57,948 nucleotides of DNA from a virus. Lineage: Duplodnaviria; Caudoviricetes. Below the pieces are notes generated by a model that was not told the DNA's origin, did no database searches, and was given only the letters and a program-made list of their open reading frames with translations. The position numbers and the translations under genes were made by a program. Shown here in pieces: positions 1-57,948 of this stretch (positions are counted from its first letter, which is position 1; every line of letters starts with the position of its first letter). Location of the stretch: positions 1-57,948 of the IMG/VR virus record IMGVR_UViG_3300045283_000172; one strand, given 5' to 3'.

Positions 1-127
1 TTGGTTTAGGTGTTACTATTTTCTATGTAGTGGTCTCTATTATTTATATGGTTCAATTAAATAGAATGGTAACTCACTATAGAGAAATAATATTGTTCTA
101 TCGAGAAACTTGTAATCGTTTAGAAGA
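1..127. repeat. Terminal direct repeat (circular assembly overlap), copy 1
   Basis: 1-127 is identical to 57822-57948; 127 is a common assembler k-mer length. Confidence 0.95.
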
Positions 128-161
128 CAAGAGAAAATATAATAGACCTAAAGGGTAATAT

Positions 162-491
162 ATGAATGAGGCTATATTTTTATTAATAATCGGCAACCTT
201 CTATTGACAGCTGTTAATATATACCGTAATAAAAGGCATATTGATGAAATGCGTCATGATATAGAAAGTTATCGGGAGATAGTCAAAAACTTTATTAATG
301 TATGCAATTCTTCTGATAAACCTAAAAGAACTAAGACTGGTAAAGTACGTGATCAATGGGGTAGATATATGACATTAGGTCAACAAATTAAACCTTTAAA
401 GCTTAGAATCAAAGGTAAAAACGGTAAGTTTGTAAATCAAAGTAAATTTACATTACATGGGATATTAAGAAGAATTAGTAGCACTAAGTAA
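162..491 (+). CDS. Hypothetical protein with N-terminal membrane anchor
   Basis: 109 aa ORF, hydrophobic N-terminus; start resembles the ORF at 57800. Confidence 0.7.
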   Translation: MNEAIFLLIIGNLLLTAVNIYRNKRHIDEMRHDIESYREIVKNFINVCNSSDKPKRTKTGKVRDQWGRYMTLGQQIKPLKLRIKGKNGKFVNQSKFTLHGILRRISSTK

Positions 492-519
492 ATTATTAAT
501 TAAAAATGAATAAAACAAC

Positions 520-1524
520 ATGACTAGAATGGTACCATTAAAGGAAGCTATCAATATATTTGAAAAGCATAAAATAAATAAGATAAAGAATGACAACCCT
601 TTGCTCTATAAGGCTGAGGGATCGATTTCACCCTTCTCATCTACTAATTATATATTAGAAAAGATAAGACAAGAAAAATTTGAAATTTATTCCCCACAGG
701 ATGACATAAAAATAGCAGGTAAAAGTCTATTAAAATTAGTAAGTAAAAAATATTATATTCCTAATCGTGATCCTTCTATAGGTGAAGGTTTACAATTATA
801 TGGTAAAGCACATACAGAGATTACAGAAACTCCGTATGGTAATAATGGGATAGAATTTGAGAAGATTTATCTTAATTTTTATGCTGACACTTTTCTAAAC
901 ATGCCATCACAGGAAATAGAGATAGATGTTGAGACAGGTAAATCAACAGTAATAAATAAAGTTCCTCTTGATGATTGGGTTAATGAAGAACTTTGTGATT
1001 TATTTGAAAATTATGATTACGATAGTTTATATAACCCTAGTATAAACTATACAGTAATGGGTAGCTGGAAAGAAAATAAGATTAGATATACAGATATATC
1101 GGTTAAACTTGATGAATTAATGGAGTTAATAAATCGTGAGTTTAATACTATACCGTCAGAATATACTCCTGTTATTGATGACATGGTAAGTAAGTACGGA
1201 GATACTATTAACAAAGTATGGAAACAGACTAGAGAACTTCATGATCAAGTACATATATTAAAAATTAACTATGTTGAAATTATACAGTTTTATAATGAAT
1301 ATAGGTTAGATATACCTAAAGAGCTTATACAAGGAAGGTTAGAGTCAGAATCATTTAATAAATACTATAGAGAAACTAAATCCTATGAGAAAGATCTAGA
1401 TGCTTTTTTTAAAGAAGATATTGAGTTACAAAAAGAATTTAATAATGAGATTGATGTATTTCTGTGTAAACTTAATCCAAGTAAGTATATTGATCATTTA
1501 ATAATACCGGAGACAAATAAATGA
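520..1524 (+). CDS. Hypothetical protein (paralog of 1702-2253)
   Basis: 334 aa ORF; shares LxxAxNIFEK, KND and LxLYxKxxxxxxET with 1702-2253. Confidence 0.8.
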   Translation: MTRMVPLKEAINIFEKHKINKIKNDNPLLYKAEGSISPFSSTNYILEKIRQEKFEIYSPQDDIKIAGKSLLKLVSKKYYIPNRDPSIGEGLQLYGKAHTEITETPYGNNGIEFEKIYLNFYADTFLNMPSQEIEIDVETGKSTVINKVPLDDWVNEELCDLFENYDYDSLYNPSINYTVMGSWKENKIRYTDISVKLDELMELINREFNTIPSEYTPVIDDMVSKYGDTINKVWKQTRELHDQVHILKINYVEIIQFYNEYRLDIPKELIQGRLESESFNKYYRETKSYEKDLDAFFKEDIELQKEFNNEIDVFLCKLNPSKYIDHLIIPETNK

Positions 1525-1733
1525 CATATATGAGCGGCTTTCTATTTGGGGCGATTATAGGTTTGTTGATACATAGCTTTAAGACTAAACGTGAATTAGA
1601 AGATCGAATAGATAGATTAGAAATTCGTATAAATAACAAATTATCTTTCTCTGAAGAGAAACTTAAAAGTTCATATTATCATATTAAAGATAAGGAAAAT
1701 AATGACATTCATATCTTTAGAAAAAGCTTGTAA
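1521..1733 (+). CDS. Small membrane-anchored hypothetical protein
   Basis: ATGA overlap with upstream gene, hydrophobic N-terminus. Confidence 0.65.
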   Translation: MTYMSGFLFGAIIGLLIHSFKTKRELEDRIDRLEIRINNKLSFSEEKLKSSYYHIKDKENNDIHIFRKSL

Positions 1734-2253
1734 CATATTTGAAAAATTTAAATTGAAGAATGATATTAAAGAATCTATAAGTATGCGGGATTGTTTAGTT
1801 AGAAATCATATCATTAGAAGATTACCACTTTATATAAAGAATGATGAAGGATACGAAGAGACAGAGGATGATATTGCTACTATAACTTCGGATATATTTA
1901 TATATTACGATGATATATATTACTTTTGTGATAAAGAATTAATGCCTCAGATGTCTTATATTGGTTGTCCGTGTTGTGGTGCGGATTATCAAGATGATGA
2001 AGAATCTAAACCTATACCTTTAACTGCACAGTCTAGTGAAATAAGCAAAGCGTTAAGACCGGGATTATATGAGATTATAGGTAAAAGAAATAATTATGCA
2101 GCTGCTATTGATCGTGAAGAAATTCGTAAGGCGTATGATTCTTCTAGTTGTAATTTCTTTAATATATTTGAAAAACCACACATATTAGCTAAATGGAGAA
2201 ATAACCCTAAACTACCCTTAAAAGTAGAAATGAAATATATAGGTTATAAATAA
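1702..2253 (+). CDS. Hypothetical protein (paralog of 520-1524) with CPCC motif
   Basis: 183 aa ORF in tightly packed operon. Confidence 0.75.
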   Translation: MTFISLEKACNIFEKFKLKNDIKESISMRDCLVRNHIIRRLPLYIKNDEGYEETEDDIATITSDIFIYYDDIYYFCDKELMPQMSYIGCPCCGADYQDDEESKPIPLTAQSSEISKALRPGLYEIIGKRNNYAAAIDREEIRKAYDSSSCNFFNIFEKPHILAKWRNNPKLPLKVEMKYIGYK

Positions 2254-2507
2254 TGGGCAAAAATGTTGAAATTAATGCGATAGATAAATTAGTTTCAAGA
2301 CGTTTAAAATATCGTAGAAGATTATTAGGTATAACTCAAAAAGAGCTTGGTATCTCTGTAGGGGTAAGTATTCAACAAATTCAAAAGTATGAAGCAGGGA
2401 CTAATCGCATTTCATGTGGTAAGTTATATGCTTTTGCAGAGTTATTAGAAGTGCCTGTAGGTTATTTCTTTGGGGATGAAACAGATAACTTTACAATTAG
2501 GAGATAG
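2253..2507 (+). CDS. XRE-family helix-turn-helix regulator
   Basis: GITQKELG..VSIQQIQKYEAGTNRIS, the alphaproteobacterial XRE signature. Confidence 0.92.
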   Translation: MGKNVEINAIDKLVSRRLKYRRRLLGITQKELGISVGVSIQQIQKYEAGTNRISCGKLYAFAELLEVPVGYFFGDETDNFTIRR

Positions 2508-2510: not shown

Positions 2511-2669
2511 ATGATGTCAATAATATTTGATCTAATATGTTTTGGATGTGTAGTGTATATGGGGCATAAATTAGTAAAAAGTAATGAAGTATCTTATGAA
2601 GTAAGTATTAAATTAGAACAGTTATCTTATGAAGTTGAAAAATTAAAGAGGCAAATAAATGAAAGATGA
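2511..2669 (+). CDS. Small membrane protein, 52 aa (not in ORF track)
   Basis: AGGAG RBS; MMSIIFDLICFGCVVYMG...QINER; fills the gap in the operon. Confidence 0.55.
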   Translation: MMSIIFDLICFGCVVYMGHKLVKSNEVSYEVSIKLEQLSYEVEKLKRQINER

Positions 2670-2964
2670 AACTAAGATAGAACGAATAATAGAAGCTATA
2701 GAAAGAGTATCTTTCTTACCTAAAAATTCAAAACAAGTTATAATACTATTATTAAAACATAAATCATCTTTACCTGCACCTGAAATAGCTCGCTTATGTG
2801 GATTTTCTTCCCAACATGCATGTTCTGTAGTAAGAAGAATGTTTGAACAAAAGCTAATAGTTAAAGTTAAAACCATACACGCAGTTACTCATTATATAGT
2901 AAACAAGGAATGGGGAAATGGGGTTTTAGGAACTTATGATCGTAGCGAAATATACAATAAATGA
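2659..2964 (+). CDS. Winged-helix DNA-binding protein
   Basis: EIARLCGFSSQHACSVVRRMFEQKLIVK pattern. Confidence 0.65.
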   Translation: MKDETKIERIIEAIERVSFLPKNSKQVIILLLKHKSSLPAPEIARLCGFSSQHACSVVRRMFEQKLIVKVKTIHAVTHYIVNKEWGNGVLGTYDRSEIYNK

Positions 2965-3305
2965 AAAAGATTAAACTAGGGAATCAGTTATCGTTTCTTC
3001 CCGTACATTCTATCAATATTTTAAATATGTTGATAGAGCATGACAAACCCTTACGAATAAAAGAAATACAGGATGTTTATGGTATATATCCCCAACAAGT
3101 TTATTTCATTCTATGTAGATTAGTAGAACAAAAATTAGTTGTTAAAGTGACAAGAGGGGTAGATCCTTATTATTGTTATGTAATTAATAAAGACTGTAAG
3201 GATAAATATCTGTATATTATTAATGGCATAGATAGTCTAAAAACTAAATGTTTGGATATTAATAATAAGATTGATGAACTTATACAAAATAAAAAAGAGG
3301 GATAA
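2961..3305 (+). CDS. Winged-helix DNA-binding protein (paralog of 2659-2964)
   Basis: SFLP...EIQ...RLVEQKLVVKV aligns with the upstream gene. Confidence 0.65.
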   Translation: MKKIKLGNQLSFLPVHSINILNMLIEHDKPLRIKEIQDVYGIYPQQVYFILCRLVEQKLVVKVTRGVDPYYCYVINKDCKDKYLYIINGIDSLKTKCLDINNKIDELIQNKKEG

Positions 3306-3635
3306 ATGACAAGTATTTCTAAAATTCCTTTTGGTTTAAAACCTTTATCACCAGATAACAATAACAGTAGAATACCATTTAATCAAAAACCAGATGGAGA
3401 TCCTTTACATATAAGATTATCTAATGGTGACTTAACTGAAGATGAATTATCATATTATACTATAGAAGGTACTATAGTTGAGTTATTGTATTCTCATGAA
3501 AGATTCATGCGTAGGTTCATGAGAGGTAAAGAGGAAGCTAGCAAAGTTGTCAATAATCTTAATACAACGGTGATAGAAATAGAGGCGTTACAAGAAAAAT
3601 TAAAAGAATTAGAAAGAGGAATAAATGACAAATGA
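3306..3635 (+). CDS. Hypothetical protein, probable diverged copy of 2961-3305
   Basis: RBS present; collinear residual motifs; flanked by a 19 bp junction repeat. Confidence 0.65.
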   Translation: MTSISKIPFGLKPLSPDNNNSRIPFNQKPDGDPLHIRLSNGDLTEDELSYYTIEGTIVELLYSHERFMRRFMRGKEEASKVVNNLNTTVIEIEALQEKLKELERGINDK

Positions 3636-4749
3636 ATATTTAAAAGGAATGTGTTACTCCGCATTTCCTATGAGCTATAATCCATCAACAGCTAATAAGA
3701 CATGTATATTCTTTGGTAGCGATATAGCATCACATAATTTAATGCCTTTATGGGGTAGTTCTTTTACTCCTAACGATGGTCCTGATAAGAATAAACTTTT
3801 TACAGGACGTAATGATATATTAGCTATGCGCAAAATGGGGGTTAACCTTATAAGATTATATGATTGGGATCCTAGGAATGATCATACTGATTTTTTAGAT
3901 TATTGTCATAGTAATAGAATCAAGGTATTAGCTCCTGTATCTAATTATAATTTAGGGGCATATGGTACACCACCTCCGATGGATGAGTCTATAAAGAATT
4001 TGCTTAAATCTTTTGGTAATAATAAGGGTACAGATTATCACCCAGCTATTTATGGAATTATAATAGGCTCAGAGCTTGATTTACCATCGGAAATGCCTCA
4101 AGGTTATTTAGCCAAATATACTAAAAGATGGGTGGAATTAGAAAAGGATGTACTATCTAATGCATCTAAACTCCCTATCGGTCATCCTGTAAGTTTTGCA
4201 AAGCATAACGGTGATTATCCATGTTTTGAATTCTGGGATAAGTTACTAGAAGAGTTAAAACATGTAACTACTAATGATTTGAATAAAAGACTTATTCTTT
4301 GCCCTCATACATATAATGAAGCTTCTTATTTGTTTGGTAATGCAGAAGGTACATTCAGAGGATGGGTAGATATAGCATATGATAAATACCAATTACCTAT
4401 ATTATTTTGTGAAATAGGATGCAGCAGATTAGTAAGAGATGATTACATACAAGTTGTGGCTGATCAATTAGAAAAATCCCATACATATGGCAAAGATAAT
4501 AAGCATAAATTACTAGGTACTTGTTTCTTCCAATTTTGTGATAAGGTATGGATGCCTAATACAACTGAAGGATCATTTGGTGCTTTATACAATACTAAAG
4601 CTACACATTATTTTGTTAAATATGGTGCTAAAGATTTTAGCCATACAGATGGTAACAATTGTAAAGATCAGTCATTAAGAGTATCAGCATTAGATATTAA
4701 TCCTGTATATAATACTGTAAAACTAATATATACCTGTGATATTAAATGA
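3625..4749 (+). CDS. Clan GH-A glycoside hydrolase, GH72 (Gas/Gel)-like
   Basis: YLKGMCY, DILAMRKMGVNLIRLY..DH, IIGSELD (acid/base Glu), LPILFCEIGC (nucleophile Glu). Confidence 0.75.
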   Translation: MTNEYLKGMCYSAFPMSYNPSTANKTCIFFGSDIASHNLMPLWGSSFTPNDGPDKNKLFTGRNDILAMRKMGVNLIRLYDWDPRNDHTDFLDYCHSNRIKVLAPVSNYNLGAYGTPPPMDESIKNLLKSFGNNKGTDYHPAIYGIIIGSELDLPSEMPQGYLAKYTKRWVELEKDVLSNASKLPIGHPVSFAKHNGDYPCFEFWDKLLEELKHVTTNDLNKRLILCPHTYNEASYLFGNAEGTFRGWVDIAYDKYQLPILFCEIGCSRLVRDDYIQVVADQLEKSHTYGKDNKHKLLGTCFFQFCDKVWMPNTTEGSFGALYNTKATHYFVKYGAKDFSHTDGNNCKDQSLRVSALDINPVYNTVKLIYTCDIK

Positions 4750-5198
4750 TAGTATCTGATTTAGAATTTCACAACCATAAAATGTCTCAGAAAGTAGATC
4801 ATAATAACAGATTCGTAACCATTGGATTTTTTGAAATTAGGTGTATTATGGATATATATAAGAATGATTTAAACATTTATTTACGTGAATCTGATATTCC
4901 CCAGGAATTAATATATTGTTTTAAAGAATTAAATGACGTTATCGTGACAACAGCAAATGATTTTAAAACTAAGTTTAATGATAAAAAATCAAAATATTTT
5001 TTTGATAATTATAGAAGTACTCAGTATCTTATTTTTGATAAGAAAGAATGGGAGATGTCTGATAAGTTTATTGACAAAGTTAGGTTGCAACTTAAAGAAA
5101 TTTTTGATCGATATTATAGAGATGCTAAATATGTATACATCAATAGGATAAAAGCGGAAACTCTAGAAGAAACATCTTTGTATTTGAAAGATAAGTGA
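4746..5198 (+). CDS. Hypothetical protein, possible compressed derivative of the glycoside hydrolase
   Basis: 150 aa ORF coupled to neighbours on both sides; collinear motifs (see findings). Confidence 0.7.
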   Translation: MIVSDLEFHNHKMSQKVDHNNRFVTIGFFEIRCIMDIYKNDLNIYLRESDIPQELIYCFKELNDVIVTTANDFKTKFNDKKSKYFFDNYRSTQYLIFDKKEWEMSDKFIDKVRLQLKEIFDRYYRDAKYVYINRIKAETLEETSLYLKDK

Positions 5199-6799
5199 AA
5201 AACAAACTAACTTTAGATGATATAAATTTAGATGATTTAGTTTATCTACAGGATAAGTATAAGGCTGAACTTTCTTTATATGAATTTATAAAGCAGGCAT
5301 GGGCAGCTTCCGCTATAGAAGGCGGAACACAATTCACTGACGGTTGGCACATAAGGGTAATATGTGAACATCTTGAAGCAATCGCCAACCGTCAGATTAA
5401 GAATCTAATCATCAATATGCCTCCACGGTGTGCTAAGTCATCTATCGTCTCTATAGCATTTCCTGCCTGGGTATGGGTTAATGCTCCTCATGAACAGTTT
5501 ATGTATTGTTCTTACGCAAGTTCATTAGCACTTAGGGATTCCGTAAGATGCAGACGTTTAATGTTATCACCTTGGTATCAAAAGAGATGGGGTAATAGGT
5601 TTCAACTAGTAGGAGATCAGAATACCAAAGGTAGATTCGATAATAACCGTTCAGGTTATAGAATGACTACTTCTACAGGAGGAAGTATTACGGGTGAAGG
5701 TGGTAATATGCTTATTGCTGATGATCCCAATAACACTAAGGACGGTGATAATTCGGATGTTAAACGTGAACGTACTATTGAATGGTGGAATCATGTGTGG
5801 TCTACAAGGTTAAACGATAAGAAGAATGATTGCAGGGTTGTAGTTCAACAAAGATATCATACCCGTGATGTTACAGGTTATATCACTTCTCATGATGATC
5901 TAAAGGAATGGACTAAGTTAATTCTTCCGATGGAATATGAGATAGAGAATAAAACTACTACTATTATCTTACCTTCTACTAATAAGAAGTTATGGTGTGA
6001 TCCTAGAGAAAAAGATGGGGATTTATTATGGCCTGAGAGATTTGACGCTAAATCAGTTAAAAGTCTTAAGAATGACTTAGGAAGTGAAGCAGCTATAGCA
6101 GGTCAATTGCAACAAAGACCGTCTTCCAGAGAAGGCAACATAATTAAAAAGTCATGGTTCCAGTGGTGGAAAGATGCACAACCTCCTCAAATAGAGTTCG
6201 TAGTACAATCATGGGATACTGCATTTTCAGAGAAAAAGACTGCTGCTTATTCTGCATGTACTACATGGGGAGTATTTTACGATCATAATTATATAGAGAA
6301 TGTAATCTTACTATCCATGTGGAGAGGAAGGGTAGAATATGTAGAGCTTAGAGAAATAGCTAAGCGTTTATATTATGATTATAGAGACACTGGTAAGGTA
6401 CATGAGCCTAAATTTAAAGGTAGACCTATTGATCTATTTCTGATAGAAGCTAGAGCGTCAGGCGATCCATTGATTAAAGACTTACAATTAGCAGGCATTA
6501 AGGCTATTCCAGTTGACCCTGCAGGTAGAGGTAACAAAATCCAGAGATTAAATTTTGTTACCCCTTTGCTAGAAGGTGAACGTGTATGGTTACCTGCACG
6601 TCCTCCATCCTTTGATCATTTATTACCTTTTGCTGACGAGCTGTTAGAAAATGTAGCATGTTATCCTAATCTTGAAAGTAATGATATAGTTGATACAATG
6701 AGTCAAGCATTTATGAAGTTAAAGACAGGTATGTTCTTATTAAATCCTAGAGATGAAAGATCAGAGCCTGAAATGCGAAAAGAAGTTAAAGTATATTAA
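5195..6799 (+). CDS. terL: Terminase large subunit
   Basis: Walker A NMPPRCAKS, Walker B LIADDP, LWPERF, QQRP, nuclease QSWDTAF and DIVDTMSQA. Confidence 0.96.
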   Translation: MKNKLTLDDINLDDLVYLQDKYKAELSLYEFIKQAWAASAIEGGTQFTDGWHIRVICEHLEAIANRQIKNLIINMPPRCAKSSIVSIAFPAWVWVNAPHEQFMYCSYASSLALRDSVRCRRLMLSPWYQKRWGNRFQLVGDQNTKGRFDNNRSGYRMTTSTGGSITGEGGNMLIADDPNNTKDGDNSDVKRERTIEWWNHVWSTRLNDKKNDCRVVVQQRYHTRDVTGYITSHDDLKEWTKLILPMEYEIENKTTTIILPSTNKKLWCDPREKDGDLLWPERFDAKSVKSLKNDLGSEAAIAGQLQQRPSSREGNIIKKSWFQWWKDAQPPQIEFVVQSWDTAFSEKKTAAYSACTTWGVFYDHNYIENVILLSMWRGRVEYVELREIAKRLYYDYRDTGKVHEPKFKGRPIDLFLIEARASGDPLIKDLQLAGIKAIPVDPAGRGNKIQRLNFVTPLLEGERVWLPARPPSFDHLLPFADELLENVACYPNLESNDIVDTMSQAFMKLKTGMFLLNPRDERSEPEMRKEVKVY

Positions 6800-6815: not shown

Positions 6816-7284
6816 ATGAAAAATATTGGTAATAAGACATTTCACACAATCTTAGCGGATCCACCTTGGCAATTTCAAAATAGGACAGGTAAAGTAGCAC
6901 CGGAGCATAAAAGGTTAAATCGATATGACACATTAAGTCTTCAAGAAATAAAGCAGTTACCTGTCTGGTAGAGGGGTAGGATTCTATTTTCGTAATGTGA
7001 CAGAGATAATTTTATTCGGGGTAAAAGGTAAAAATGCCAGGACTAGAGAGGCAGGCAGAAGCCAGGTTAATATAATTAGCAGTAGAAAACGGGAACATTC
7101 CAGAAAACCTGATGAACTTTACGAAATTATTGAAAATTGTAGTACAGCACCTTATTTAGAACTCTTTGCAAGAGGTAAAAAAGAAGGTTGGTATCAGTGG
7201 GGTGATCAGGTAGAGAATTATACACCTACTTGGTCTACATATTCTAACCATTCTCACAAAGTAGTAACACAACATCGTGTTTAA
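6816..7284 (+). pseudogene. MT-A70-family adenine methyltransferase with internal deletion and frameshift
   Basis: ATG at 6816 gives TILADPPWQF..IKQLPV then TAG at 6969; the +1 frame resumes GRGVGFYFRNVTE..HSRKPDE..LELFARG; the central LYLW/WGF segment is absent. Confidence 0.88.
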
Positions 7285-7444: not shown

Positions 7445-7521
7445 TGGTCGGGGTAGAAAGATTTGAACTCTCGACCTCCTGTACCCAAAACAGGTGCGCT
7501 ACCAAGCTGCGCTATACCCCG
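7445..7521 (-). tRNA. tRNA-Pro(TGG)
   Basis: Full cloverleaf: acceptor CGGGGTA/TACCCCG, anticodon arm CCTGT-TTTGGGT-ACAGG, TTCAAAT T-loop, encoded CCA. Confidence 0.95.
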
Positions 7522-50474: not shown

Positions 50475-50954
50475 ATGAAATTAGAAGATATAAAAAGTAT
50501 ACATTTTCAATGTAGTTTACATGCTAATTATTATGATTCTGCTAGTAGACCCTTAAGTTGTGAAGTTCATTATATAGAGATTGTTACATATGATGGATGT
50601 CTAATAAATCTTGTTGATGCTTTAGAAATGGTCTTATGGGAAGGTGTTAATATTGATAATCAATTATATAATTTACTATTGATGGTTCGAGAAGCAGCTT
50701 CTAATTATGATTATAAAAGCGCAAAAAATATAAGTGAAGAATGTGATTTGTGGGTAAAATATTATAATGAAGAGTTTGCAGGTATGCATGATAGATATAA
50801 ACAGTTTTATAATTTTGATCTTACCTTAGATATGTTTAAAGATATAGAGATGGAGATTAAATATTTCCCATTTAGAATAAAAGAAGCTCTTGAAGAAAAA
50901 TTCACGGAAGCATTTAAATATTTCCATAACAAAGCAAAAGAATTAACGATATAG
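50475..50954 (+). CDS. Hypothetical protein, tandem family member 1 (resembles the primase C-terminus)
   Basis: Ends F..F.NKAKEL like the next two genes; flanked by an exact 25 bp repeat. Confidence 0.75.
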   Translation: MKLEDIKSIHFQCSLHANYYDSASRPLSCEVHYIEIVTYDGCLINLVDALEMVLWEGVNIDNQLYNLLLMVREAASNYDYKSAKNISEECDLWVKYYNEEFAGMHDRYKQFYNFDLTLDMFKDIEMEIKYFPFRIKEALEEKFTEAFKYFHNKAKELTI

Positions 50955-50964
50955 GGTTCTAACG

Positions 50965-51381
50965 ATGTTTATAGAGGTTAGAGTTGGGGTAGGTTTAAAT
51001 AAGGTTAATACTGACATGTTAATGTATTGGGATGATAACCCCAGTGAATTAGTTTATGGTTATAATATGTCAGTATACTTTGCTTCAACATTAAAGGGAC
51101 ATAAGGATAATAAAATTATAAAACTATTTCTAGAAAAAGAGGAACAATTAAAATCAAAATTTGAAAATAGTTTTAAGGAAGAAAGCGATATTTGGGAAAA
51201 GGTTTTTAAAGATAAGAAATATCTAAAAACCAAGATAAACATTTATGATAGTGCATTTAAGGCTTTTAGCGAAAAAGGATTAGATGAATGGTTAACAGAA
51301 GAATTTGATAGTTTATTTTTAGATATTTATAACGAAGCAAAAGAACTAACAGAAAAAATAGAAGGTGTAAGATGGAATTAG
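50965..51381 (+). CDS. Hypothetical protein, tandem family member 2
   Basis: EEF..F..IYNEAKELT. Confidence 0.7.
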   Translation: MFIEVRVGVGLNKVNTDMLMYWDDNPSELVYGYNMSVYFASTLKGHKDNKIIKLFLEKEEQLKSKFENSFKEESDIWEKVFKDKKYLKTKINIYDSAFKAFSEKGLDEWLTEEFDSLFLDIYNEAKELTEKIEGVRWN

Positions 51382-51851
51382 AAGATATAGGTAAAGTAGA
51401 AGTTAAATTCTTATTAGTTACTAATAATTTGGTTGCAGATCGTATTCTCCCTACTCCATGGGTGAACATAGATATCATCCCTAAAATGGTTGTTCCAATT
51501 ATACCAGCTATTAAATACAAAAATTATGATATAGAGGAAGTTATCAGGGATTTAATACGTTTTGAGTCTGATCATATAAGGATATTTTCTATATTAAGTT
51601 TATTTACGGAGGCAAGATTAGATTTTATTGCTAAATATAGAGATAAAATGAATGAAGATAGACAAATGTGGTTGCATTTTATAAAGAAAGTATCAGAAGA
51701 TGAAAGTTTAAATAATAAAGTTGGATGTAGTTTTACTTTTATGCAAGATGCTTTTGAAGATAAAGACTTTCCATTAAAACAAGCGATTGCAGATCAATTC
51801 AATGCGGCATACGATTATTTTTATAACAAAGCAAAAGAACTAATAGAATAA
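51372..51851 (+). CDS. Hypothetical protein, tandem family member 3
   Basis: MELEDI start; FP..K.A....F..A..YF.NKAKEL. Confidence 0.75.
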   Translation: MELEDIGKVEVKFLLVTNNLVADRILPTPWVNIDIIPKMVVPIIPAIKYKNYDIEEVIRDLIRFESDHIRIFSILSLFTEARLDFIAKYRDKMNEDRQMWLHFIKKVSEDESLNNKVGCSFTFMQDAFEDKDFPLKQAIADQFNAAYDYFYNKAKELIE

Positions 51852-51855
51852 GATT

Positions 51856-52200
51856 ATGGAAGAAGACATAAAATTTAGTATTTCAATTAGTGAAAATGAA
51901 GAAACTAAAAAGATTGATTTTGAATTGAAATTAGTAGATAAAAATACTAATAAGATGCTAGCATGGGAGAGTGAGGAGGGTGAGGTAGTAAAGATATTAG
52001 CTAAACATTATGTTCCTATATTAGAGAATCTTTTTGTTGATAATAAAGGTTTTTTTATCAACAAAGAATGGGCGGTAGATTATCATGTTTTCTTATCCTC
52101 TAAATGGGAAACCATGGAAAAGATAAAAGCTATGATAAAATTGTATAGTACTATAGAAAAAGATCTTGTTATCTCTAAAGACAAGGTATCATTTAATTAA
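51856..52200 (+). CDS. Hypothetical protein
   Basis: 114 aa ORF, MEEDIK start. Confidence 0.7.
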   Translation: MEEDIKFSISISENEETKKIDFELKLVDKNTNKMLAWESEEGEVVKILAKHYVPILENLFVDNKGFFINKEWAVDYHVFLSSKWETMEKIKAMIKLYSTIEKDLVISKDKVSFN

Positions 52201-52239
52201 CAAAGATTAAAATATTAACTTATTAACATTTATTAACAT

Positions 52240-52740
52240 ATGGCTATAATACGAGGTACAGTAAAGAAGAAGTTAGGTAACCCTAACATGGTAAAAGGGG
52301 TATCTGGCAATCCTAACGGTAGGCCTAAGGGAAGGTATAGCGATATAACGCTTAGTTTCATGAAACTTAAGAAGATCGCATCTACTAGAGTTGATGAGGC
52401 TTTTAATATGTTATGGTCAGCAATGGAAAGGGGAGAGTCATGGGCATTTCAGATATACTATAAGGAGTTATATACTTTGCCACGTAATATAGATGAAAAG
52501 ACAGTAACTATAACGGCTACAGATACAAGTTTAGATGGACAGATTGAAACACTTACGAGTATATTGCCTGAATTTGATGAGGTTACACATGATGAGTCGT
52601 TAAATAGGTTAAAGGTATTGAATGCTGTCAAGGGTAATGATGTTCTAGTTAAACAGAATGATGAGATTAGGGAGACTAGAGAGACATTACTTGAGAAGGT
52701 AGAACTTATACAACAGATTAGAGATTTTAAGGGGGTATAA
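52240..52740 (+). CDS. terS: Putative terminase small subunit (DUF5681-type N-terminus)
   Basis: KGVSGNPNGRPKG, then ..A..G..WA helix pattern. Confidence 0.7.
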   Translation: MAIIRGTVKKKLGNPNMVKGVSGNPNGRPKGRYSDITLSFMKLKKIASTRVDEAFNMLWSAMERGESWAFQIYYKELYTLPRNIDEKTVTITATDTSLDGQIETLTSILPEFDEVTHDESLNRLKVLNAVKGNDVLVKQNDEIRETRETLLEKVELIQQIRDFKGV

Positions 52741-52741
52741 T

Positions 52742-52948
52742 ATGAATGATAAAGTAAAATTATCTGAAAAAGGAGTAAGGATTTCTGAAGAAGGAGATGT
52801 AGAAATATGGGTTGATTCTGAGTGGGTGAATTATGAGATTTATAAAAAATTAAACCCATCACATACTGGCATTAGGAATGCAAGAAAACAAATAGATGAC
52901 TATGAAGAAAAGCATGGATCTATTTTTGGGGAACAAAATAATGAATGA
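52742..52948 (+). CDS. Hypothetical protein
   Basis: 68 aa ORF with RBS. Confidence 0.6.
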   Translation: MNDKVKLSEKGVRISEEGDVEIWVDSEWVNYEIYKKLNPSHTGIRNARKQIDDYEEKHGSIFGEQNNE

Positions 52949-53138
52949 TAAGTATATAGATGAAGCTGTAAGAAAGTATTTTGCAGATAGTAAGAAAGGT
53001 AGTAAAACATTTGTTTCATCTATATTAAGCTCTAGAGAATTCATGAGAATGAAGATGGATCCTTCATATCCTATTAATGAATTCACAGATAGAATAGAAG
53101 AGATTGAAAAGAAATATTCAAATAAAAAGATGGATTAG
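52941..53138 (+). CDS. Hypothetical protein (start moved from 52896)
   Basis: MNDK start overlaps the upstream stop; faint similarity to TerS. Confidence 0.55.
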   Translation: MNDKYIDEAVRKYFADSKKGSKTFVSSILSSREFMRMKMDPSYPINEFTDRIEEIEKKYSNKKMD

Positions 53139-53159
53139 AGATTTTAAGGAGAAGGTGTA

Positions 53160-53363
53160 ATGAACATAGAAGATGAATTAGTAACATATTATAATCCTAA
53201 TGAGGAATTAGTAAATGATTACAAGGAAGAAAATCGGAAAGAAGATTTACTATTTGCTAGAGAAATGAGGGAATTTAGAAAGTCATTAGATGAAGGTGGT
53301 TCCAATAAAGAGAAAGTTTTTAGAGGTTTTTCTGTAGAAAGAGATTTTAAGGAGAAGGTGTAA
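53160..53363 (+). CDS. Hypothetical protein resembling the TerS C-terminus
   Basis: EMREFRKSL..EKV..RDFK vs TerS EIRETRETL.EKV..RDFK. Confidence 0.65.
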   Translation: MNIEDELVTYYNPNEELVNDYKEENRKEDLLFAREMREFRKSLDEGGSNKEKVFRGFSVERDFKEKV

Positions 53364-53479
53364 TGTCGGAAGAAGTTGACATAGAAGATGATGAAATACC
53401 TGAGGACTGCGCATGTGGTTGTAATTGCGGCTTTTGTCCTTGTTTGCATACGTTCGTTCTACACGGGATTAAAACATAA
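53363..53479 (+). CDS. Cys-rich mini-protein, 38 aa (not in ORF track)
   Basis: Strong RBS; DCACGCNCGFCPCLH. Confidence 0.5.
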   Translation: MSEEVDIEDDEIPEDCACGCNCGFCPCLHTFVLHGIKT

Positions 53480-53518
53480 TAAGGAAATTATTTAAAGAAC
53501 AAATAGGATCATTAAGTT

Positions 53519-54118
53519 ATGACTGAAGAAGATAAGGAAGAACACAGGAAAAACTTAAAAATTGAGGAAGAAGCTTATAGAAAGTTAGGAATTTGGACTA
53601 TTCTTGATAGTAATATAAAAGAAGTAAAAGAAATTACTATTTTAGATGACGATAGTAGGAATTTTCTACTTAAATGGATAAGTGGTATTAATAAGATTAC
53701 TCATTTTGACACATTAGATGATTCCTATATAAAAATACCCAATCCCGTAGAAATTTATAGGAGTGTTCCAAAAAAGGATAAAGGTTATAAACCTTTATGT
53801 ACTGAGGAAGGATGTTTCTGTAGGCATGATGAGTCTAAGGACAAACTTACAAATTATAACGGAGGAGTGTTAGGGCCTGTAAATTTTAAAAGATATTTTA
53901 ATAATTGTAGTCAGATTGCAAGAAAATGTGTTGAATGTGGAAAAAAGCATCCTGGACATCAACATATAAAATGTAAGCAATACAACGAACTGTATGATGA
54001 ACTTGAGAATTTAGCATTAGAATTAGGTAATCATATGATGGATTGTAAAGAAGGTTCACATGAAGACTTGAGTGCTTTAGCGCATAAGATTATAAAGGAT
54101 TTGAGTAAATTGATATGA
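53519..54118 (+). CDS. Hypothetical Cys/His-rich protein
   Basis: CTEEGCFC, CVECG, HIKC. Confidence 0.7.
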   Translation: MTEEDKEEHRKNLKIEEEAYRKLGIWTILDSNIKEVKEITILDDDSRNFLLKWISGINKITHFDTLDDSYIKIPNPVEIYRSVPKKDKGYKPLCTEEGCFCRHDESKDKLTNYNGGVLGPVNFKRYFNNCSQIARKCVECGKKHPGHQHIKCKQYNELYDELENLALELGNHMMDCKEGSHEDLSALAHKIIKDLSKLI

Positions 54119-54414
54119 GTGAAAATAAAGACGATCTATGTGCATGTGGATGTGAGAATAATTCGTCAAGACATATAGCTAACGGTATAAGGAGTCACTT
54201 TAAATTACATTTATTCGATGTCACTAATAAAAAAGGTGAGATAGTGGGCTACGAATGGAGGGATGTAAATTGCGAATTCTGTAAAAGAATAAAACGGCGT
54301 AATATAATAAGAAAAGCAGAAAGGAAATTAGGAAGATGTTGGGGAAAGTCTGATAGACAAATGAAGATAGAGGCGAAATATAAAAGCATATTATCTAATA
54401 GAATTGCAAAATGA
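54115..54414 (+). CDS. Hypothetical zinc-finger-like protein
   Basis: CACGC and CEFC. Confidence 0.65.
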   Translation: MSENKDDLCACGCENNSSRHIANGIRSHFKLHLFDVTNKKGEIVGYEWRDVNCEFCKRIKRRNIIRKAERKLGRCWGKSDRQMKIEAKYKSILSNRIAK

Positions 54415-54554
54415 TTAACGAGATACTAACACAATTATGTAAAACATTGAACGAACATAAAAAAGATTGTATATCTGAAGGGGAAGAGAATTGCATAGAG
54501 TGTTATTTAGTACAGACAGAAAAGTATTTTAAGAAACAAAATCGAAAGTTTTAA
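54411..54554 (+). CDS. Small hypothetical protein, 47 aa (not in ORF track)
   Basis: ATGA overlap; H...C......CxxC. Confidence 0.45.
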   Translation: MINEILTQLCKTLNEHKKDCISEGEENCIECYLVQTEKYFKKQNRKF

Positions 54555-54574
54555 TATGGTTTATAAGGTGGATT

Positions 54575-54754
54575 ATGGAAATTGAAGATTTCGATTTAGA
54601 GTGGCGTATTCTAATTAATTCAGGCATAGGTAATAAAGATTTAAAAGAGATATGCGAGATATCAATAAAAGGGATAGAATTAGATAATAGGAAAAATGAT
54701 ATTAAAAAACAAAAGATAGAAAAAATCTTGTCAGGGATAAACTATGAAAGATAA
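54575..54754 (+). CDS. Small hypothetical protein, 59 aa (not in ORF track)
   Basis: AAGGTGG RBS; ends KILSGINYER, like the end of 57409-57807. Confidence 0.55.
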   Translation: MEIEDFDLEWRILINSGIGNKDLKEICEISIKGIELDNRKNDIKKQKIEKILSGINYER

Positions 54755-54956
54755 AAACATTAATGAATATTATGAAGCTCGATCAAATAAGTTATTAGAA
54801 GTGCAGGATATAATAGATGAATATTTCGATACTGTAATAGTAAACCCTGATGAATTAATAGATGTAGATTTACTAGGGGAAAATGGATTTGAATCCCCAC
54901 AGATAGAACAAGAGATACTAAAGAAGTTACATACAATAATATATAAATCTACATAA
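54744..54956 (+). CDS. Hypothetical protein
   Basis: 70 aa ORF. Confidence 0.6.
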   Translation: MKDKNINEYYEARSNKLLEVQDIIDEYFDTVIVNPDELIDVDLLGENGFESPQIEQEILKKLHTIIYKST

Positions 54957-54972
54957 TTTTACACAATACTTA

Positions 54973-55000
54973 TTGACATACTTTACATAATAGTCTACTT
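54973..55000 (+). promoter_or_regulatory. Putative promoter with TACATAAT box
   Basis: TACTTATTGACAT (same as at 48116), TACATAAT in the spacer, intergenic. Confidence 0.5.
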
Positions 55001-55033
55001 TAGGTTTACTTAATATAAACTAAAGAGGAAATT

Positions 55034-55465
55034 ATGATAAATAACAGAGACGTATTACAATACAAATCTAAAATTATAATTAAATATGCTTCATTAGATC
55101 ATAAATTAATAGATCATCCAGAGATACAAGCAAGATTAGATAATGTTCGTAATTTATATGCATATAGTGATAAGATAAAATTACTAGATACTTTTGATAT
55201 GATGCTAACACGATATAACTATAATGATAATGATTTGTATATTAGGTTATTGCATTATATAGCTGTACAACATGAATTATTTACTAAAATAAAGATTACA
55301 GAAGGTGAGATTGTATATCTAATAGATGATATTAAATTGTTATTAATTGGTATTTGCAAAGAGATTATACAACCTAATATTGATATTGAGATTTTACCTG
55401 CCTATCTTAAGGAGTTTTATCAGAGAGTTATAAATATAGCTGAAGGTATGAAATGGAATTATTAA
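55034..55465 (+). CDS. Hypothetical protein
   Basis: 143 aa ORF, GAGG RBS. Confidence 0.75.
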   Translation: MINNRDVLQYKSKIIIKYASLDHKLIDHPEIQARLDNVRNLYAYSDKIKLLDTFDMMLTRYNYNDNDLYIRLLHYIAVQHELFTKIKITEGEIVYLIDDIKLLLIGICKEIIQPNIDIEILPAYLKEFYQRVINIAEGMKWNY

Positions 55466-55686
55466 TAGATCGTATATTAGAGTTATTCGTAAGTATATGG
55501 TGGTTTATAGTAATGGCTTGTTCAGTTTACCTAATAATTAAATTCTTTGAATTATTAGGTAAACTCATAATGGGAATATGTGAATTCATAGAGTGGTTAT
55601 TAACTCCATATAGATGGTTATGCACTCAGTGGGAAAGATTAGAAAAATGGACAGAAAAAACTCCAGATAAAAAAGATGAAATATAA
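55453..55686 (+). CDS. Hypothetical membrane protein
   Basis: Long hydrophobic Trp-rich segment. Confidence 0.65.
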   Translation: MELLIDRILELFVSIWWFIVMACSVYLIIKFFELLGKLIMGICEFIEWLLTPYRWLCTQWERLEKWTEKTPDKKDEI

Positions 55687-55855
55687 TTTGTCATTTGAAA
55701 TTACAGACTCTTTTCGTAGGGATGTATTAGAACGTTCGATTATGTATGAAGCTTGTGCATATGTGGGATATGATAAGTATTGTACAATTGATGAGTTAAA
55801 GATTATATTGAGTAAACTTGAAACATTGAATAAAGATAAAAAGGATAGAGCGTAG
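55676..55855 (+). CDS. Small hypothetical protein, 59 aa (not in ORF track)
   Basis: Fills the gap between coupled ORFs. Confidence 0.5.
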   Translation: MKYNLSFEITDSFRRDVLERSIMYEACAYVGYDKYCTIDELKIILSKLETLNKDKKDRA

Positions 55856-55858
55856 AGT

Positions 55859-56236
55859 ATGGAAATTGAGTTAGTAGATTATGCTTTTTATAAATTATTA
55901 GCTGTGTTGATAATTTGCGCATTGATATATTACAGTATCGGGTTAGTAAAACAAAAAGATAAAAAAGTAATTGAGGAGAAAAAGCCTTTAACGGATTATC
56001 AAATGAACTGCAAATTGGCTAAATATTTACATAGTATCGGTAAAGATAAAGAGCGTATAGAAAATAGTGTAAGAATATTAAACTCTCTAAGGTTAGAACT
56101 TCGTAATGATGTTCACCAAGAAGTTTTAATAGATTGGGTAAGTAATATGGGAGAAGAACAAATTACTAGATATTTGTATAGTGATGAATCAAAAAAAGAA
56201 ATTATTAGAATGATGAGAGTGGGGTATGGTAGCTAA
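55859..56236 (+). CDS. Membrane-anchored hypothetical protein
   Basis: N-terminal hydrophobic helix. Confidence 0.7.
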   Translation: MEIELVDYAFYKLLAVLIICALIYYSIGLVKQKDKKVIEEKKPLTDYQMNCKLAKYLHSIGKDKERIENSVRILNSLRLELRNDVHQEVLIDWVSNMGEEQITRYLYSDESKKEIIRMMRVGYGS

Positions 56237-56426
56237 CTGGGAAATTGCACATCAAGAGTATAAAGCCTTTAGAAAACGATGGGATAATAAGAATATATTT
56301 GAATATGGGGAGAAGATGCTAGATTTAGATAAAAACGTCCCAAGAAAATCCTCAGAAGAATTAAATGCTATGTCACTTAGGGAATATCTTGATTATTTAA
56401 AAGCTCGATATGGTAGTCTAACTTAA
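56226..56426 (+). CDS. Hypothetical protein
   Basis: 66 aa ORF overlapping the upstream stop. Confidence 0.6.
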   Translation: MVANWEIAHQEYKAFRKRWDNKNIFEYGEKMLDLDKNVPRKSSEELNAMSLREYLDYLKARYGSLT

Positions 56427-56685
56427 TGAATAAACACGAATTATTTCAAGCAATTATATACTTAGTAATTATTATATTACTAAGTATAATGCTATCAGAT
56501 CTGACATTAATTCGTAATGATATAGAGGAACTAAAGGACTGGTTATACTTAATTACTAAAATGTTATTAGATTAAATAACTACCTAAAAACCATAATAAA
56601 CCCCTATAATTTATAAACTAGTAATTGACTTTGCATCATTAAGATGTATTGTTTTAACCTTATTAACTTATAATATTTATAAATT

Positions 56686-57399
56686 ATGATCCCTCAAAAT
56701 ATTTTAGTAACGAATGCTAAAGATCTTCTAAATCATATTATTGACAATATAAATAAGGACAATAAAGTAAAAAAATCTATGTATAAAAAGTACATAGATG
56801 TATTCACAAAAAATATCGATATTGTTCTTAATGAATTTAACAAAACAGATTGTGAGTCAGTCCATTTTAAATTAATAGATTCGAAATTATATTTTAACAT
56901 AGGTAATAATGGGGTTTATGAATATTATTCTACTAACTTGCCTGTTAATGCCGAACTTATTAAACAGAGAGGTCATCCCTTTTTAGGTCTACTAATAGCT
57001 GATCTAAAGTCAATTATATACAAGAATGGTTTTAAGTATATTGAGGATTTACTCAATAGATTATTAGGTGGTGTAGGTTTAGGGGCAAAGGATCGGGTTC
57101 CGGAAGCAGAGAGGGAGGCATTTATTTTATCAGTAGGGGAAAAGTTCGCCGAACAGATTGATAAATTAATTATTACTTTATCTCAGCATGCTAAAATGGC
57201 TGATGATGTAGATGGGTTTGTGCTCGCAGAATGGGATGATAAAAGGTCTTTAATTGATGCTAAAACTTTACACATGGTATGTAAAAACACAGATAATTTT
57301 AACGAATTTTTCTATAAATATATAGAAACAACGATAGTACTTATGGCTAGAAGTGCTTTTGAGCTTGAACAAATAGTTGATAAGATAAAATATAATTAG
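56686..57399 (+). CDS. Hypothetical protein
   Basis: 237 aa ORF downstream of a TTGACT promoter-like element. Confidence 0.8.
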   Translation: MIPQNILVTNAKDLLNHIIDNINKDNKVKKSMYKKYIDVFTKNIDIVLNEFNKTDCESVHFKLIDSKLYFNIGNNGVYEYYSTNLPVNAELIKQRGHPFLGLLIADLKSIIYKNGFKYIEDLLNRLLGGVGLGAKDRVPEAEREAFILSVGEKFAEQIDKLIITLSQHAKMADDVDGFVLAEWDDKRSLIDAKTLHMVCKNTDNFNEFFYKYIETTIVLMARSAFELEQIVDKIKYN

Positions 57400-57408
57400 A
57401 AATAAAGT

Positions 57409-57807
57409 ATGAGCATCAGAGGTAAAAAATATCTAAAGAAAGGTTTAGAGGAGATAAATCTTACAGCAGAAGATTCCTATGATTACATATCTAGATACAG
57501 TGATAAGTGTACTCATCTATTATGGAGGATAGAAAGTTTACTATGGGAGTTAGATCACTTAGAAGGAATACCAACTAAGTTTGATAGAGTAGCATGGGAT
57601 GAGGGTAAGATCACACTTAAAAGGACATTAGAAATACCTCCATCAACGTCTGAAAAATTCCCAGATACTATAAGGAAATATGTAGAGTTAATGATACAAT
57701 CATTAAAGGAAGACGGGGATTCTCTAAATGAGGATTTGATTAATTGGAAAGAATGCTTAGGTATAAAAGGTAAGAAAATATTATCAGGTATAAAAAAATA
57801 TGAATGA
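57409..57807 (+). CDS. Hypothetical protein
   Basis: 132 aa ORF. Confidence 0.7.
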   Translation: MSIRGKKYLKKGLEEINLTAEDSYDYISRYSDKCTHLLWRIESLLWELDHLEGIPTKFDRVAWDEGKITLKRTLEIPPSTSEKFPDTIRKYVELMIQSLKEDGDSLNEDLINWKECLGIKGKKILSGIKKYE

Positions 57808-57948
57808 GATTATATTTTGGGTTGGTTTAGGTGTTACTATTTTCTATGTAGTGGTCTCTATTATTTATATGGTTCAATTAAATAGAATGGTAACTCACTA
57901 TAGAGAAATAATATTGTTCTATCGAGAAACTTGTAATCGTTTAGAAGA
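57800..57948 (+). CDS. Membrane-anchored protein spanning the circular junction (stop at 156-158)
   Basis: MNEIIFWVGLGVTIFYVVVSIIY...NRPKG stays open across the join. Confidence 0.7.
   Translation, partial: MNEIIFWVGLGVTIFYVVVSIIYMVQLNRMVTHYREIILFYRETCNRLE
57822..57948. repeat. Terminal direct repeat, copy 2
   Basis: Identical to 1-127. Confidence 0.95.

Follow-up and report, generated by a model that had tools for sequence, protein, structure and literature searches.

The window analysed here is a whole stretch of 57,948 nucleotides (IMG/VR record IMGVR_UViG_3300045283_000172) that holds a complete podophage genome, with a patatin-like phospholipase gene, a gene for a GH72-like glycosidase and four ankyrin genes lying inside its core operons. 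Its first 127 bases are identical to its last 127 (exact match of the ends 1-127 and 57822-57948), which gives a unit of 57,821 bp; in its record the genome is assigned to the direct-terminal-repeat class with a CheckV completeness of 100, and an open reading frame (ORF) of 59 amino acids (aa) spans the end junction. The 127 bp could be either a real terminal repeat or an assembly overlap. The GC content is 0.326 overall and 0.27-0.39 per 2-kb segment, and GC at third codon positions is about 0.2 for nearly every gene, the ankyrin genes included. The genome is arranged in a rightward late operon (about 3.6 to 37.7 kb), a leftward replication operon (37.8 to 47.0 kb) and a rightward early operon that starts at about 47.4 kb and runs across the end junction. 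It belongs to a large uncultured AT-rich clade of soil and fresh water with a virion module of the HTVC023P/CRP-901 type, and the ankyrin genes are true add-ons of this genome, whereas the patatin and GH72-like genes are not.

An initial annotation, made from the sequence alone, had described an AT-rich, circularly closed phage with full virion and replication modules, no recognisable integrase, two XRE regulator genes of the QQxxKYExGxNRIS type, four ankyrin genes, a patatin and a GH72-like enzyme. Each of these elements was recovered here, with one ankyrin gene marginal and the glycosidase recognised by its fold, its Pfam score being below cut-off. Homologues were sought in a phage database of 50,697 records, and placement is from BLAST identities. 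Five complete relatives are designated G001 to G005. The nearest known counterpart in concept is MAnkyphage_25.80 (OP381185.1), a 38.4-kb circular podophage recorded from Ca. Megaira polyxenophila in a freshwater cryptomonad and reportedly described by George et al. 2023 (Curr Biol). Since that phage already puts on record a podophage of a Rickettsiales symbiont with ankyrins and a patatin beside the fibre, the genome described here is not a first.

Virion module and kinship

The late operon carries, in order, the GH72-like gene, a 150-aa gene occupying the small-terminase position, the large terminase gene (TerL), a broken MT-A70 gene, an SU10-type portal, GroES, the capsid, an SU10-type adaptor, patatin, the fibre, three fibre-like genes and, over about 9.6 kb, a run of large virion proteins. 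The features of this half of the unit are as follows.

1-127, no strand: terminal overlap, copy of 57822-57948, closing the 57,821-bp unit
3625-4749, plus strand: GH72-like clan GH-A (beta/alpha)8 glycosidase, 374 aa (fold test; Pfam below cut-off)
5195-6799, plus strand: TerL (tblastn, 42.5% over 93% to the CRP-901 TerL)
6816-7284, plus strand: broken MT-A70 methyltransferase (DPPW piece at 6816-6968; C-terminal piece at 6952-7284, in another frame)
7445-7521, minus strand: tRNA-Pro (TGG) (ARAGORN)
7985-10330, plus strand: portal, SU10 type (Pfam SU10_portal, 32.7 bits; about 30% to the HTVC023P, HTVC027P and CRP-901 portals)
11618-12025, plus strand: GroES-like co-chaperonin in the head module (Pfam Cpn10, 2.1e-7; gene also annotated in CRP-901 and HTVC023P)
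15765-16673, plus strand: major head protein (phrog_371, 3.3e-7; 46-67% in G001-G005)
18978-20090, plus strand: SU10-type adaptor, with a second adaptor-like gene at 31196-31840 (Pfam SU10_adaptor, 2.9e-9 and 3.1e-14)
20567-21769, plus strand: patatin-like phospholipase (Pfam 1.2e-19, 71.8 bits against a cut-off of 27.7)
21766-25032, plus strand: tail fibre, 1088 aa, repetitive (N-terminal domain Pfam Phage_T7_tail, 1.6e-14; N-terminus 32% over 129 aa to the MAnkyphage fibre)
25393-28082, plus strand: three more fibre-like genes (phrog_8745 tail fibre, 6.7e-14)
28084-37694, plus strand: run of large virion proteins, kept in G001-G005
31844-33469, plus strand: virion structural protein (phrog_3287)

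TerL is closest to those of the Roseobacter phages CRP-901 and CRP-902 (42%), with 32% identity to that of the pelagiphage HTVC023P. For the portal, matches are confined to 18 records, with identities of about 30% to DSL-LC04, CRP-901/902 and HTVC023P/027P (30% over 80-82% for the HTVC023P/CRP-901 type) and of 25% to Caulobacter phages. With the HTVC023P pelagiphages and CRP-901 roseophages the window thus has homologous TerL (32-42%) and portal proteins, and it further shares GroES in the head module, the head and tail gene order, the lack of lysogeny genes and a replication module that differs among relatives and is not kept together with the structural genes. Those phages are marine with free-living hosts, and their records give no patatin or ankyrin match. 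The portal identity of about 30% suggests that the clade may form a separate family-level group beside them. The polymerase is closest (41-46%) to those of unrelated Pseudoalteromonas, Vibrio and Klebsiella phages. This mosaic of core genes matches the pattern reported for CRP-901/902, which are described in PMC10149686 as strictly lytic and as sharing structural genes with HTVC023P while having a replication module of other origin.

Near-complete genomes of the clade, 48-59 kb long, number in the hundreds, and none of its members is cultured. In metagenomes, 765 portal homologues were found at E<=1e-20, many of them 55-89% identical and on contigs of 51-59 kb, and portal alignment recovered 420 relatives in IMG/VR, where a single-protein portal scan had given none. 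All loci with a portal identity of at least 42% are AT-rich (GC 0.31-0.39); AT-richness, which the initial annotation had listed among its observations, is therefore common to the whole clade. The nearest complete relative, G001 (48,229 bp), has the virion module at 59-78% identity, patatin at 76%, the GH72-like protein at 62% and the replication module at 47-65%, whereas G002-G005 have only virion genes in common with the window.

Contigs from runs X2, X12, X15 and X17 were compared with positions 37000-56999 of the window; run X2 contains an independent 56,914-bp contig, a near-full-length variant with about 95-97% identity across the 20 kb compared. The habitat is drawn from these four runs, whose long matching pieces are labelled soil, freshwater, freshwater sediment and rhizosphere; five runs with a word share below 0.2 were excluded. 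Ten small runs from six studies (X2-X11), all labelled soil metagenome, each have an identical word share of 0.47. Run X2 comprises just 397 million letters, yet its variant reaches depth 62, which is unusually high for soil. Runs X2-X11 may represent one campaign or low-complexity samples.

The phage was called short-tailed because of its portal, adaptor and fibre domains and its kinship with the HTVC023P/CRP-901 type, and no tape measure, sheath or tube family was seen among the window proteins. No endolysin, holin or spanin family was recognised in the Pfam and PHROGs scans, an absence of match and not of function. The MT-A70 gene, among those listed for checking by the initial annotation, proved to be broken: its 51-aa N-terminal piece corresponds to model positions 1-36 and its C-terminal piece to 92-172, the middle (about 37-91) is gone, the frames differ, and no single open frame covers the whole domain. 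In a compact phage genome, a decayed methylase could be a sign that pressure from restriction systems has relaxed. Elsewhere in the late operon, a lone 131-aa minus-strand ORF (7544-7939) lies beside tRNA-Pro between TerL and the portal and is kept in the loci of 36 relatives (30-58%). Three virion genes of 220-229 aa at 16689-18713 are tandem paralogues (26-33% identical), and the fibre-like genes at 26251-27108 and 27144-28082 are likewise paralogues (49%).

Replication operon and ankyrin cassettes

From about 47.0 kb leftward, the replication operon runs through XRE2, a DUF2800 nuclease, an Enc34-type single-stranded DNA-binding protein (SSB), tRNA-Gln, the DNA polymerase, ANK4, ANK3, a small endonuclease, ANK2, ANK1 and SNF2. 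Its features, and those of the early operon, are listed below.

37835-39145, minus strand: SNF2 helicase, last gene of the leftward operon (Pfam SNF2-rel_dom, 3.6e-26; 65% in G001)
39142-39732, minus strand: ANK1, marginal ankyrin (Ank_2, 29.8 bits against a cut-off of 27.3; in the X2 variant; not in G001-G005)
39751-40536, minus strand: ANK2 (Ank_2, 3.3e-22; 804-bp cassette at 39746-40549)
40529-40816, minus strand: small endonuclease between the ankyrin pairs (phrog_93 endonuclease, 1.8e-21; 47% in G001)
40809-41252, minus strand: ANK3 (Ank_2, 1.4e-10; in the X2 and X12 variants)
41249-41833, minus strand: ANK4 (Ank_2, 1.2e-15; 586-bp cassette)
41835-43592, minus strand: DNA polymerase (41-46% over 99-100% to Pseudoalteromonas, Vibrio and Klebsiella phages; 62% in G001; Pfam gives no match)
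43614-43689, minus strand: tRNA-Gln (TTG) (ARAGORN)
43871-44416, minus strand: Enc34-type ssDNA-binding protein (Pfam, 5.8e-25)
44449-45528, minus strand: DUF2800 PD-(D/E)XK nuclease (Pfam, 1.1e-81)
46222-46599, minus strand: XRE2, near the head of the leftward operon and beside the divergent intergenic region (Pfam HTH_3, 3.7e-9)
48349-50472, plus strand: primase-helicase with PriCT-2 and VapE domains, rightward early operon (Pfam; 35% in G001)
52240-52740, plus strand: DUF5681-like protein in common with MAnkyphage (Pfam DUF5681, 1.3e-4, below cut-off; 33% over 143 aa)
2253-2507, plus strand: XRE1, 84-aa HTH_3 regulator with a QQIQKYEAGTNRIS motif (Pfam HTH_3, 2.1e-10)

The four ankyrin genes lie at 39142-41833, all within 2.7 kb, and three of them are clear. 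Ank_2 is absent from all five complete relatives, in a six-frame search that finds five stretches on the window, and in G001 the SNF2, endonuclease and polymerase genes are contiguous, with no space for other genes. Strains differ in the same way: ANK4 is missing in 4/4 runs (joint 41248>41835 in X2, X12, X15 and X17) and ANK2 in 1/4 (joint 39745>40550 in X17), while the X2 variant has ANK1-3. A 30-nt direct repeat (29/30 positions) brackets ANK4; it copies the 3' end of the polymerase gene and includes the ribosome site of the following gene with its start codon. The direct repeat around ANK2 is of the same type and 16 nt long. Between themselves, ANK2 and ANK4 are 40% identical over 128 aa.

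Other early genes vary too, with joints at 45528, 46080, 50478, 52732 and 53347, and the ankyrins are therefore part of a general flux of cassettes: at the population level, the early region is a cassette-flux zone. Beyond the ankyrins, the segments 45528-45890, 46080-46232, 50478-50919, 52732-53971, 53347-54411 and 56322-56325 were found to be missing, replaced or rearranged in X2, X12, X15 and X17. The set of DUF2800 nuclease, SSB, polymerase, endonuclease and SNF2 is itself a swappable module, common only to G001. Tandem paralogues occur here as well, namely two 159-aa early genes at 50475-51851 (25%) and two small winged-helix-like genes at 2659-3305 (32%). A sigma-70 scan of 45800-48400 gave 18 sites, with 17.0 expected, and three terminator-like sites, with 1.0 expected.

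The repeats suggest how such cassettes come and go. The ankyrin pairs occupy the gene junctions to either side of the small endonuclease gene, and each cassette ends in a copy of the last 16-30 nt of the preceding gene; as this copy holds the next gene's ribosome site and start codon, the operon still reads through. Recombination from repeat to repeat gains or loses a cassette, as is observed among strains. The ankyrin proteins would be made early in the infected bacterium and would bind proteins, either those of the eukaryote in which the bacterium lives, reached by secretion or lysis, or those of the bacterium.

The initial annotation placed the ankyrins inside core operons, which agrees with their position at gene junctions of the replication operon, and counted them within a eukaryote-facing toolkit; no donor of the ankyrins can be traced. 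The relatives of ANK2 are confined to its own species cluster (96%, seven contigs), all others being generic repeat matches; plant and protist proteins were considered as its donor and rejected, as they give such generic matches of <=44% over <=52% of the query. Export of the ankyrin proteins from the bacterium is only a proposal, which counts against the eukaryote-directed reading. The alternative that the cassettes are variable early genes whose products bind bacterial proteins, for takeover or counter-defence, and are not aimed at a eukaryote falls only a little short of an even chance. It draws on the position of the ankyrin genes in the early/replication operon among the other strain-variable cassettes, on the failure to find a donor or, by Pfam, a eukaryote-like partner domain on the ankyrin genes, and on the sequences of the ankyrin proteins, in which no hydrophobic N-terminus was seen. 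Against it, the only phage-database records matched by ANK2 are those of Wolbachia phage WO (4/50,697), MAnkyphage has ankyrin genes too, and, in assays reported in bioRxiv 10.1101/608950, an ankyrin from a sponge phage reduced phagocytosis and inflammatory signalling.

The combination of Ank Pfam domains with phage hallmark genes (terminase, portal and capsid) makes the genome an Ankyphage in the broad sense. The sponge-symbiont Ankyphages of Jahn et al. (bioRxiv 10.1101/608950) likewise encode ankyrin proteins thought to act on the eukaryote housing the host. Two of theirs have signal peptides and one was assayed in macrophages, whereas the proteins of the window share only the repeat with them.

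Patatin and the GH72-like enzyme

The patatin gene has all its motifs (GGGERG at residues 14-19, GTSVG at 49-53 and DGG at 216-218, as in PF01734), and its start and stop overlap the adjoining tail genes. Of the 25 relatives' loci in which the upstream gene is visible, 10 have a homologue at this position and 15 pass straight to the fibre. The nearest Atlas clusters are 87-88% viral. In the phage database only seven of 50,697 records match, namely MAnkyphage (31% over 100%, 5e-46, next to the fibre), five Wolbachia WO records (about 25% over 61%) and one uncultured phage. Patatin is thus a conserved tail-operon gene of the phage clade; its reading as a host-derived or eukaryote-association add-on was rejected on account of the fixed slot and the viral clusters.

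Judged from its sequence, the protein is predicted to be an intact Ser-Asp lipase that is translationally coupled to the tail genes, and it may attack membranes during entry or exit, in line with a proposal for WO, for which a patatin-based lytic cassette adjoining the tail module is put forward in PMC9203015. Either the patatin or the GH72-like enzyme could act in lysis or entry.

The GH72-like enzyme is GH72-like in its predicted fold and not a GH72 member. The Pfam match reaches 23.7 bits against a cut-off of 25.9 and covers residues 62-109 (48) only, which leaves the protein outside the family by sequence. Its AlphaFold2 model has a pLDDT (predicted local distance difference test) of 94.1, and the best two of 48,161 chains compared with it are GH72 enzymes, the fungal beta-1,3-glucanosyltransferases Gas2 (Z 25.9) and Gel4 (Z 25.5), the next chain scoring 22.6. 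These matches have a root-mean-square deviation of 2.8 over about 277 residues at about 15% identity; the Gas2 sequence match has an E value of 0.014, with both catalytic Glu residues aligned. E150 and E263 are invariant in 28 sequences. Next to the acid/base Glu, the preceding residue is a nearly invariant Asn in the family and Ser in the window enzyme (GSE for GNE). Unlike Gas2 and Gel4, the 374-aa window enzyme has no extra C-terminal domain, and its relatives are bacterial and phage proteins: homologues occur in G001 and in the clade loci L006 and L007, and others lie in a Pseudomonadota-dominated cluster and in Desulfovibrio and Chromatiaceae metagenome-assembled genomes (MAGs). A eukaryote-derived origin of the gene was rejected on these grounds. 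Patatin and the GH72-like enzyme therefore drop out of the eukaryote-facing toolkit in which the initial annotation had included them. Its description of the eukaryote-facing genes as dispersed does not hold for the ankyrins.

This arrangement can be set against that of WO (Symbioviridae; host order Rickettsiales), which also has multiple ankyrins, a patatin by the tail module and XRE regulators. As described in PMC9203015, however, WO is temperate, has a recombinase and keeps its eukaryote-like genes together in a single module. In the window there is neither a recombinase (Phage_integrase and Resolvase, 0 matches) nor such a gathered module: its ankyrins are single cassettes in the replication operon, its patatin is in the tail operon, only about 25% identical to that of WO over 61%, and its GH72-like gene stands beside the terminase. 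The proposal that the phage is unrelated to WO was borne out for the core genes.

Host, lifestyle and significance

The initial annotation proposed a Rickettsiales-like host, and that proposal stands as the best reading, on evidence from XRE1, MAnkyphage and Shine-Dalgarno use that the annotation did not have; its own reasons form only a portion of the argument. We consider it somewhat better than an even bet that the host is an AT-rich alphaproteobacterium of the Rickettsiales, for example a Megaira-like symbiont of protists. A much smaller share of the probability goes to other Alphaproteobacteria and very little to Bacteroidota, the rest lying elsewhere.

Among the 120 XRE1 homologues listed, 11 are named and all 11 are Alphaproteobacteria. 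The taxonomy of these hits, recommended for checking at the outset, is headed by two MAG proteins at 62% identity, one of a Rickettsiales bacterium (over 85% of the query) and one of a Rickettsiaceae bacterium (over 79%), and the other nine named relatives among the matches listed are from Caulobacter (57-63% over 55-62%). The contig with the best XRE1 match, L104, has a GC of 0.361 and carries MsbA, SecD, FabI, Lnt, RimK and GyrB neighbours; its positions 17020-19413 encode a 797-aa protein that matches the Sca4 family (Rickettsia) at 6.7e-55, below the curated cut-off, and this match supports a Rickettsiaceae-like origin of the contig. The second-best XRE1 locus has a GC of 0.355, against a median of 0.63 for all 80 XRE loci. 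XRE2, which carries the same QQxxKYExGxNRIS motif as XRE1, has 254 plasmid matches that are nearly all alphaproteobacterial (176 in Rhizobium).

The second line of evidence is the resemblance to MAnkyphage. Both are AT-rich podophages (GC 0.326 for the window and 0.339 for MAnkyphage), both have ankyrin genes, which in MAnkyphage lie in the early region, and both have patatin directly upstream of the fibre. Four solid genes are shared, namely patatin (31% full length), the fibre N-terminus, the large virion protein at 29338-31215, for which MAnkyphage is the only phage-database match (5e-43), and DUF5681, and other clade members share them too. The two nevertheless differ in their core virion lineage: only 5/74 window proteins match MAnkyphage at E<=1e-3, and the window is 1.5 times larger. 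MAnkyphage has gp11/gp12 genes for a T7-type tail tube, along with lysozyme and lytic transglycosylase genes, and no lysozyme was recognised in the window. It also has a resolvase, a replication initiator and a RelE/ParE pair, none of which was found there.

Shine-Dalgarno motifs precede 18/68 window genes, compared with 5-6 at control positions, and the clade spans 13/50 to 25/67. This use resembles that of MAnkyphage (14/38) and of the alphaproteobacterial phages (28/62 and 32/58). Two Bacteroidota phages differ, with 3/51 and 1/46, below their own background, which argues against a Bacteroidota host. A Rickettsiales survey found mostly aquatic and protist-associated sources (PMC10847448).

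Several points weigh against a Rickettsiales host. XRE1 is a protein of only 84 aa whose phage-database matches are mixed, with Streptococcus (44), Caulobacter (39) and Paenibacillus (23) phages among them, the best being gut phages at 54-55%, and the plasmid identities of XRE2 are only 31-36%. No direct host link by prophage copy or spacer match was found. Portal, TerL and capsid have no match in MAnkyphage at E<=1e-3, and the shared genes could therefore have moved between phages of different hosts; moreover, the host of MAnkyphage is taken as stated in its database record. By TerL and portal, the cultured phages closest to the window have free-living Alphaproteobacteria as hosts. The only links of the clade to genome bins are a contig of a Bacteroidota MAG (L002) and two proteins named after MAGs, one of Bacteroidota and one of Brocadiaceae; the two Bacteroidota-binned relatives have 55% portal identity. 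The commonness of the clade in water and soil metagenomes sits oddly with phages of intracellular hosts, for which it would not be expected.

An alternative host would be a free-living or otherwise non-Rickettsiales alphaproteobacterium, such as an AT-rich freshwater relative of SAR11, a member of the Holosporales or a Caulobacter-like organism, with the ankyrins acting inside the bacterium or against grazing protists. We regard this as unlikely. In its favour, the hosts of the cultured phages that come closest in TerL and portal are Roseobacter, Pelagibacter, Paracoccus, Rhizobium and Caulobacter, the last of which supplies 9/11 of the named XRE1 relatives among the matches listed; the clade is very common in environmental assemblies; and 418 ankyrin-bearing IMG/VR phage contigs from many habitats are reported in bioRxiv 10.1101/608950. 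However, the two closest XRE1 relatives lie in AT-rich DNA labelled Rickettsiales, one of them beside the Sca4-family gene, and Caulobacter is GC-rich, like 78/80 of the XRE loci. Patatin and the 29338-31215 protein point to the Megaira phage, patatin also to WO. Matching pieces come from runs labelled soil and rhizosphere, and SAR11 relatives are not known as soil organisms.

As to lifestyle, a virulent one is the best reading of the sequence, because no integration or partition genes were found. Recombinase, transposase and partition families were not detected by Pfam in the 74 ORFs (20 searched singly and 54 as a set, E<=0.01), nor among the PHROGs families of 54 ORFs, and a six-frame search at E<=1 gave no match to Phage_integrase, Resolvase or ParB_N in the window, with models that each detected their family in 11-14 of 14 control genomes. 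The search for recombinases and partition proteins recommended by the initial annotation thus came back empty. No chromosome junction was seen in the run contigs over 37000-56999; loose contig ends at about 43656-43741, at the tRNA-Gln gene, probably belong to tRNA contigs of other organisms. A portal-alignment scan of 185,579 species genomes found no prophage copy, its sole relative being a 14-kb contig, and the clade is therefore not common as a prophage. The virulent reading depends on a lack of recognisable genes, which counts against it.

Where the initial annotation had left a lytic and an episomal phage side by side, the lytic one is accordingly favoured and the episomal one kept as a rival that we rate as quite improbable: the phage would not be strictly lytic and would persist as an episome or in a carrier state in a slow-growing intracellular host, with the XRE pair as a repressor switch. 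The two Cro/CI-type regulators, one of them by a divergent control region, would fit such a switch, as would the circular MAnkyphage record with its resolvase, replication initiator and RelE/ParE pair and the depth of the variant contig in the small run X2. Virulent phages, however, commonly carry XRE regulators; neither the ORF scans nor the six-frame searches found partition, plasmid-replication, toxin-antitoxin or recombinase families; and the related CRP-901/902 are reported to be lytic.

Returning to the host, a member of the Bacteroidota is very improbable: AT-rich Bacteroidota are common in soil and fresh water, L002, the sole relative among the species genomes, sits in a Bacteroidota MAG, one portal homologue is named from such a MAG and the third-nearest patatin cluster is mostly Bacteroidota, but Shine-Dalgarno motifs are enriched 3- to 5-fold in the window and all five complete relatives and occur at 11/15 genes of L002, XRE1 finds a match in only 34 of 301 Bacteroidota genomes (at best 41%, 43 bits), and another homologue is named from the Brocadiaceae MAG. 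L002 is a 14-kb contig with only phage-clade genes, which makes its binning weak evidence, and it is probably mis-binned; the same MAG contains L185, a small contig with a 40% XRE match.

A host cannot be identified from ankyrin and patatin genes alone, and patatin is here a clade-wide phage gene. Very few Rickettsiales phages are known, namely the temperate WO of Wolbachia and one Megaira podophage. If the host call in favour of Rickettsiales is right, the clade would add a second, much larger virulent lineage, one that many data sets from soil and fresh water contain. Such a lineage would lend itself to study through its tail-operon phospholipase, a possible substitute for the classical enzymes of lysis or entry, through the gain and loss of ankyrin genes from strain to strain, and through the slotting of repeat-flanked genes into a translationally coupled operon. 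A broader and distinctly tentative picture, which we hold to be doubtful as a whole, is that the clade consists of cosmopolitan, strictly lytic podophages on environmental Rickettsiales living in protists of soil and fresh water, with the patatin serving to cross membranes, either host-derived or bacterial, and the ankyrin cassettes, exchanged between strains, encoding effectors aimed at the eukaryote. If this were true, obligate intracellular bacteria would face abundant free virulent phages, and a patatin gene beside a tail fibre gene would be a mark by which such phages could be recognised in metagenomes.

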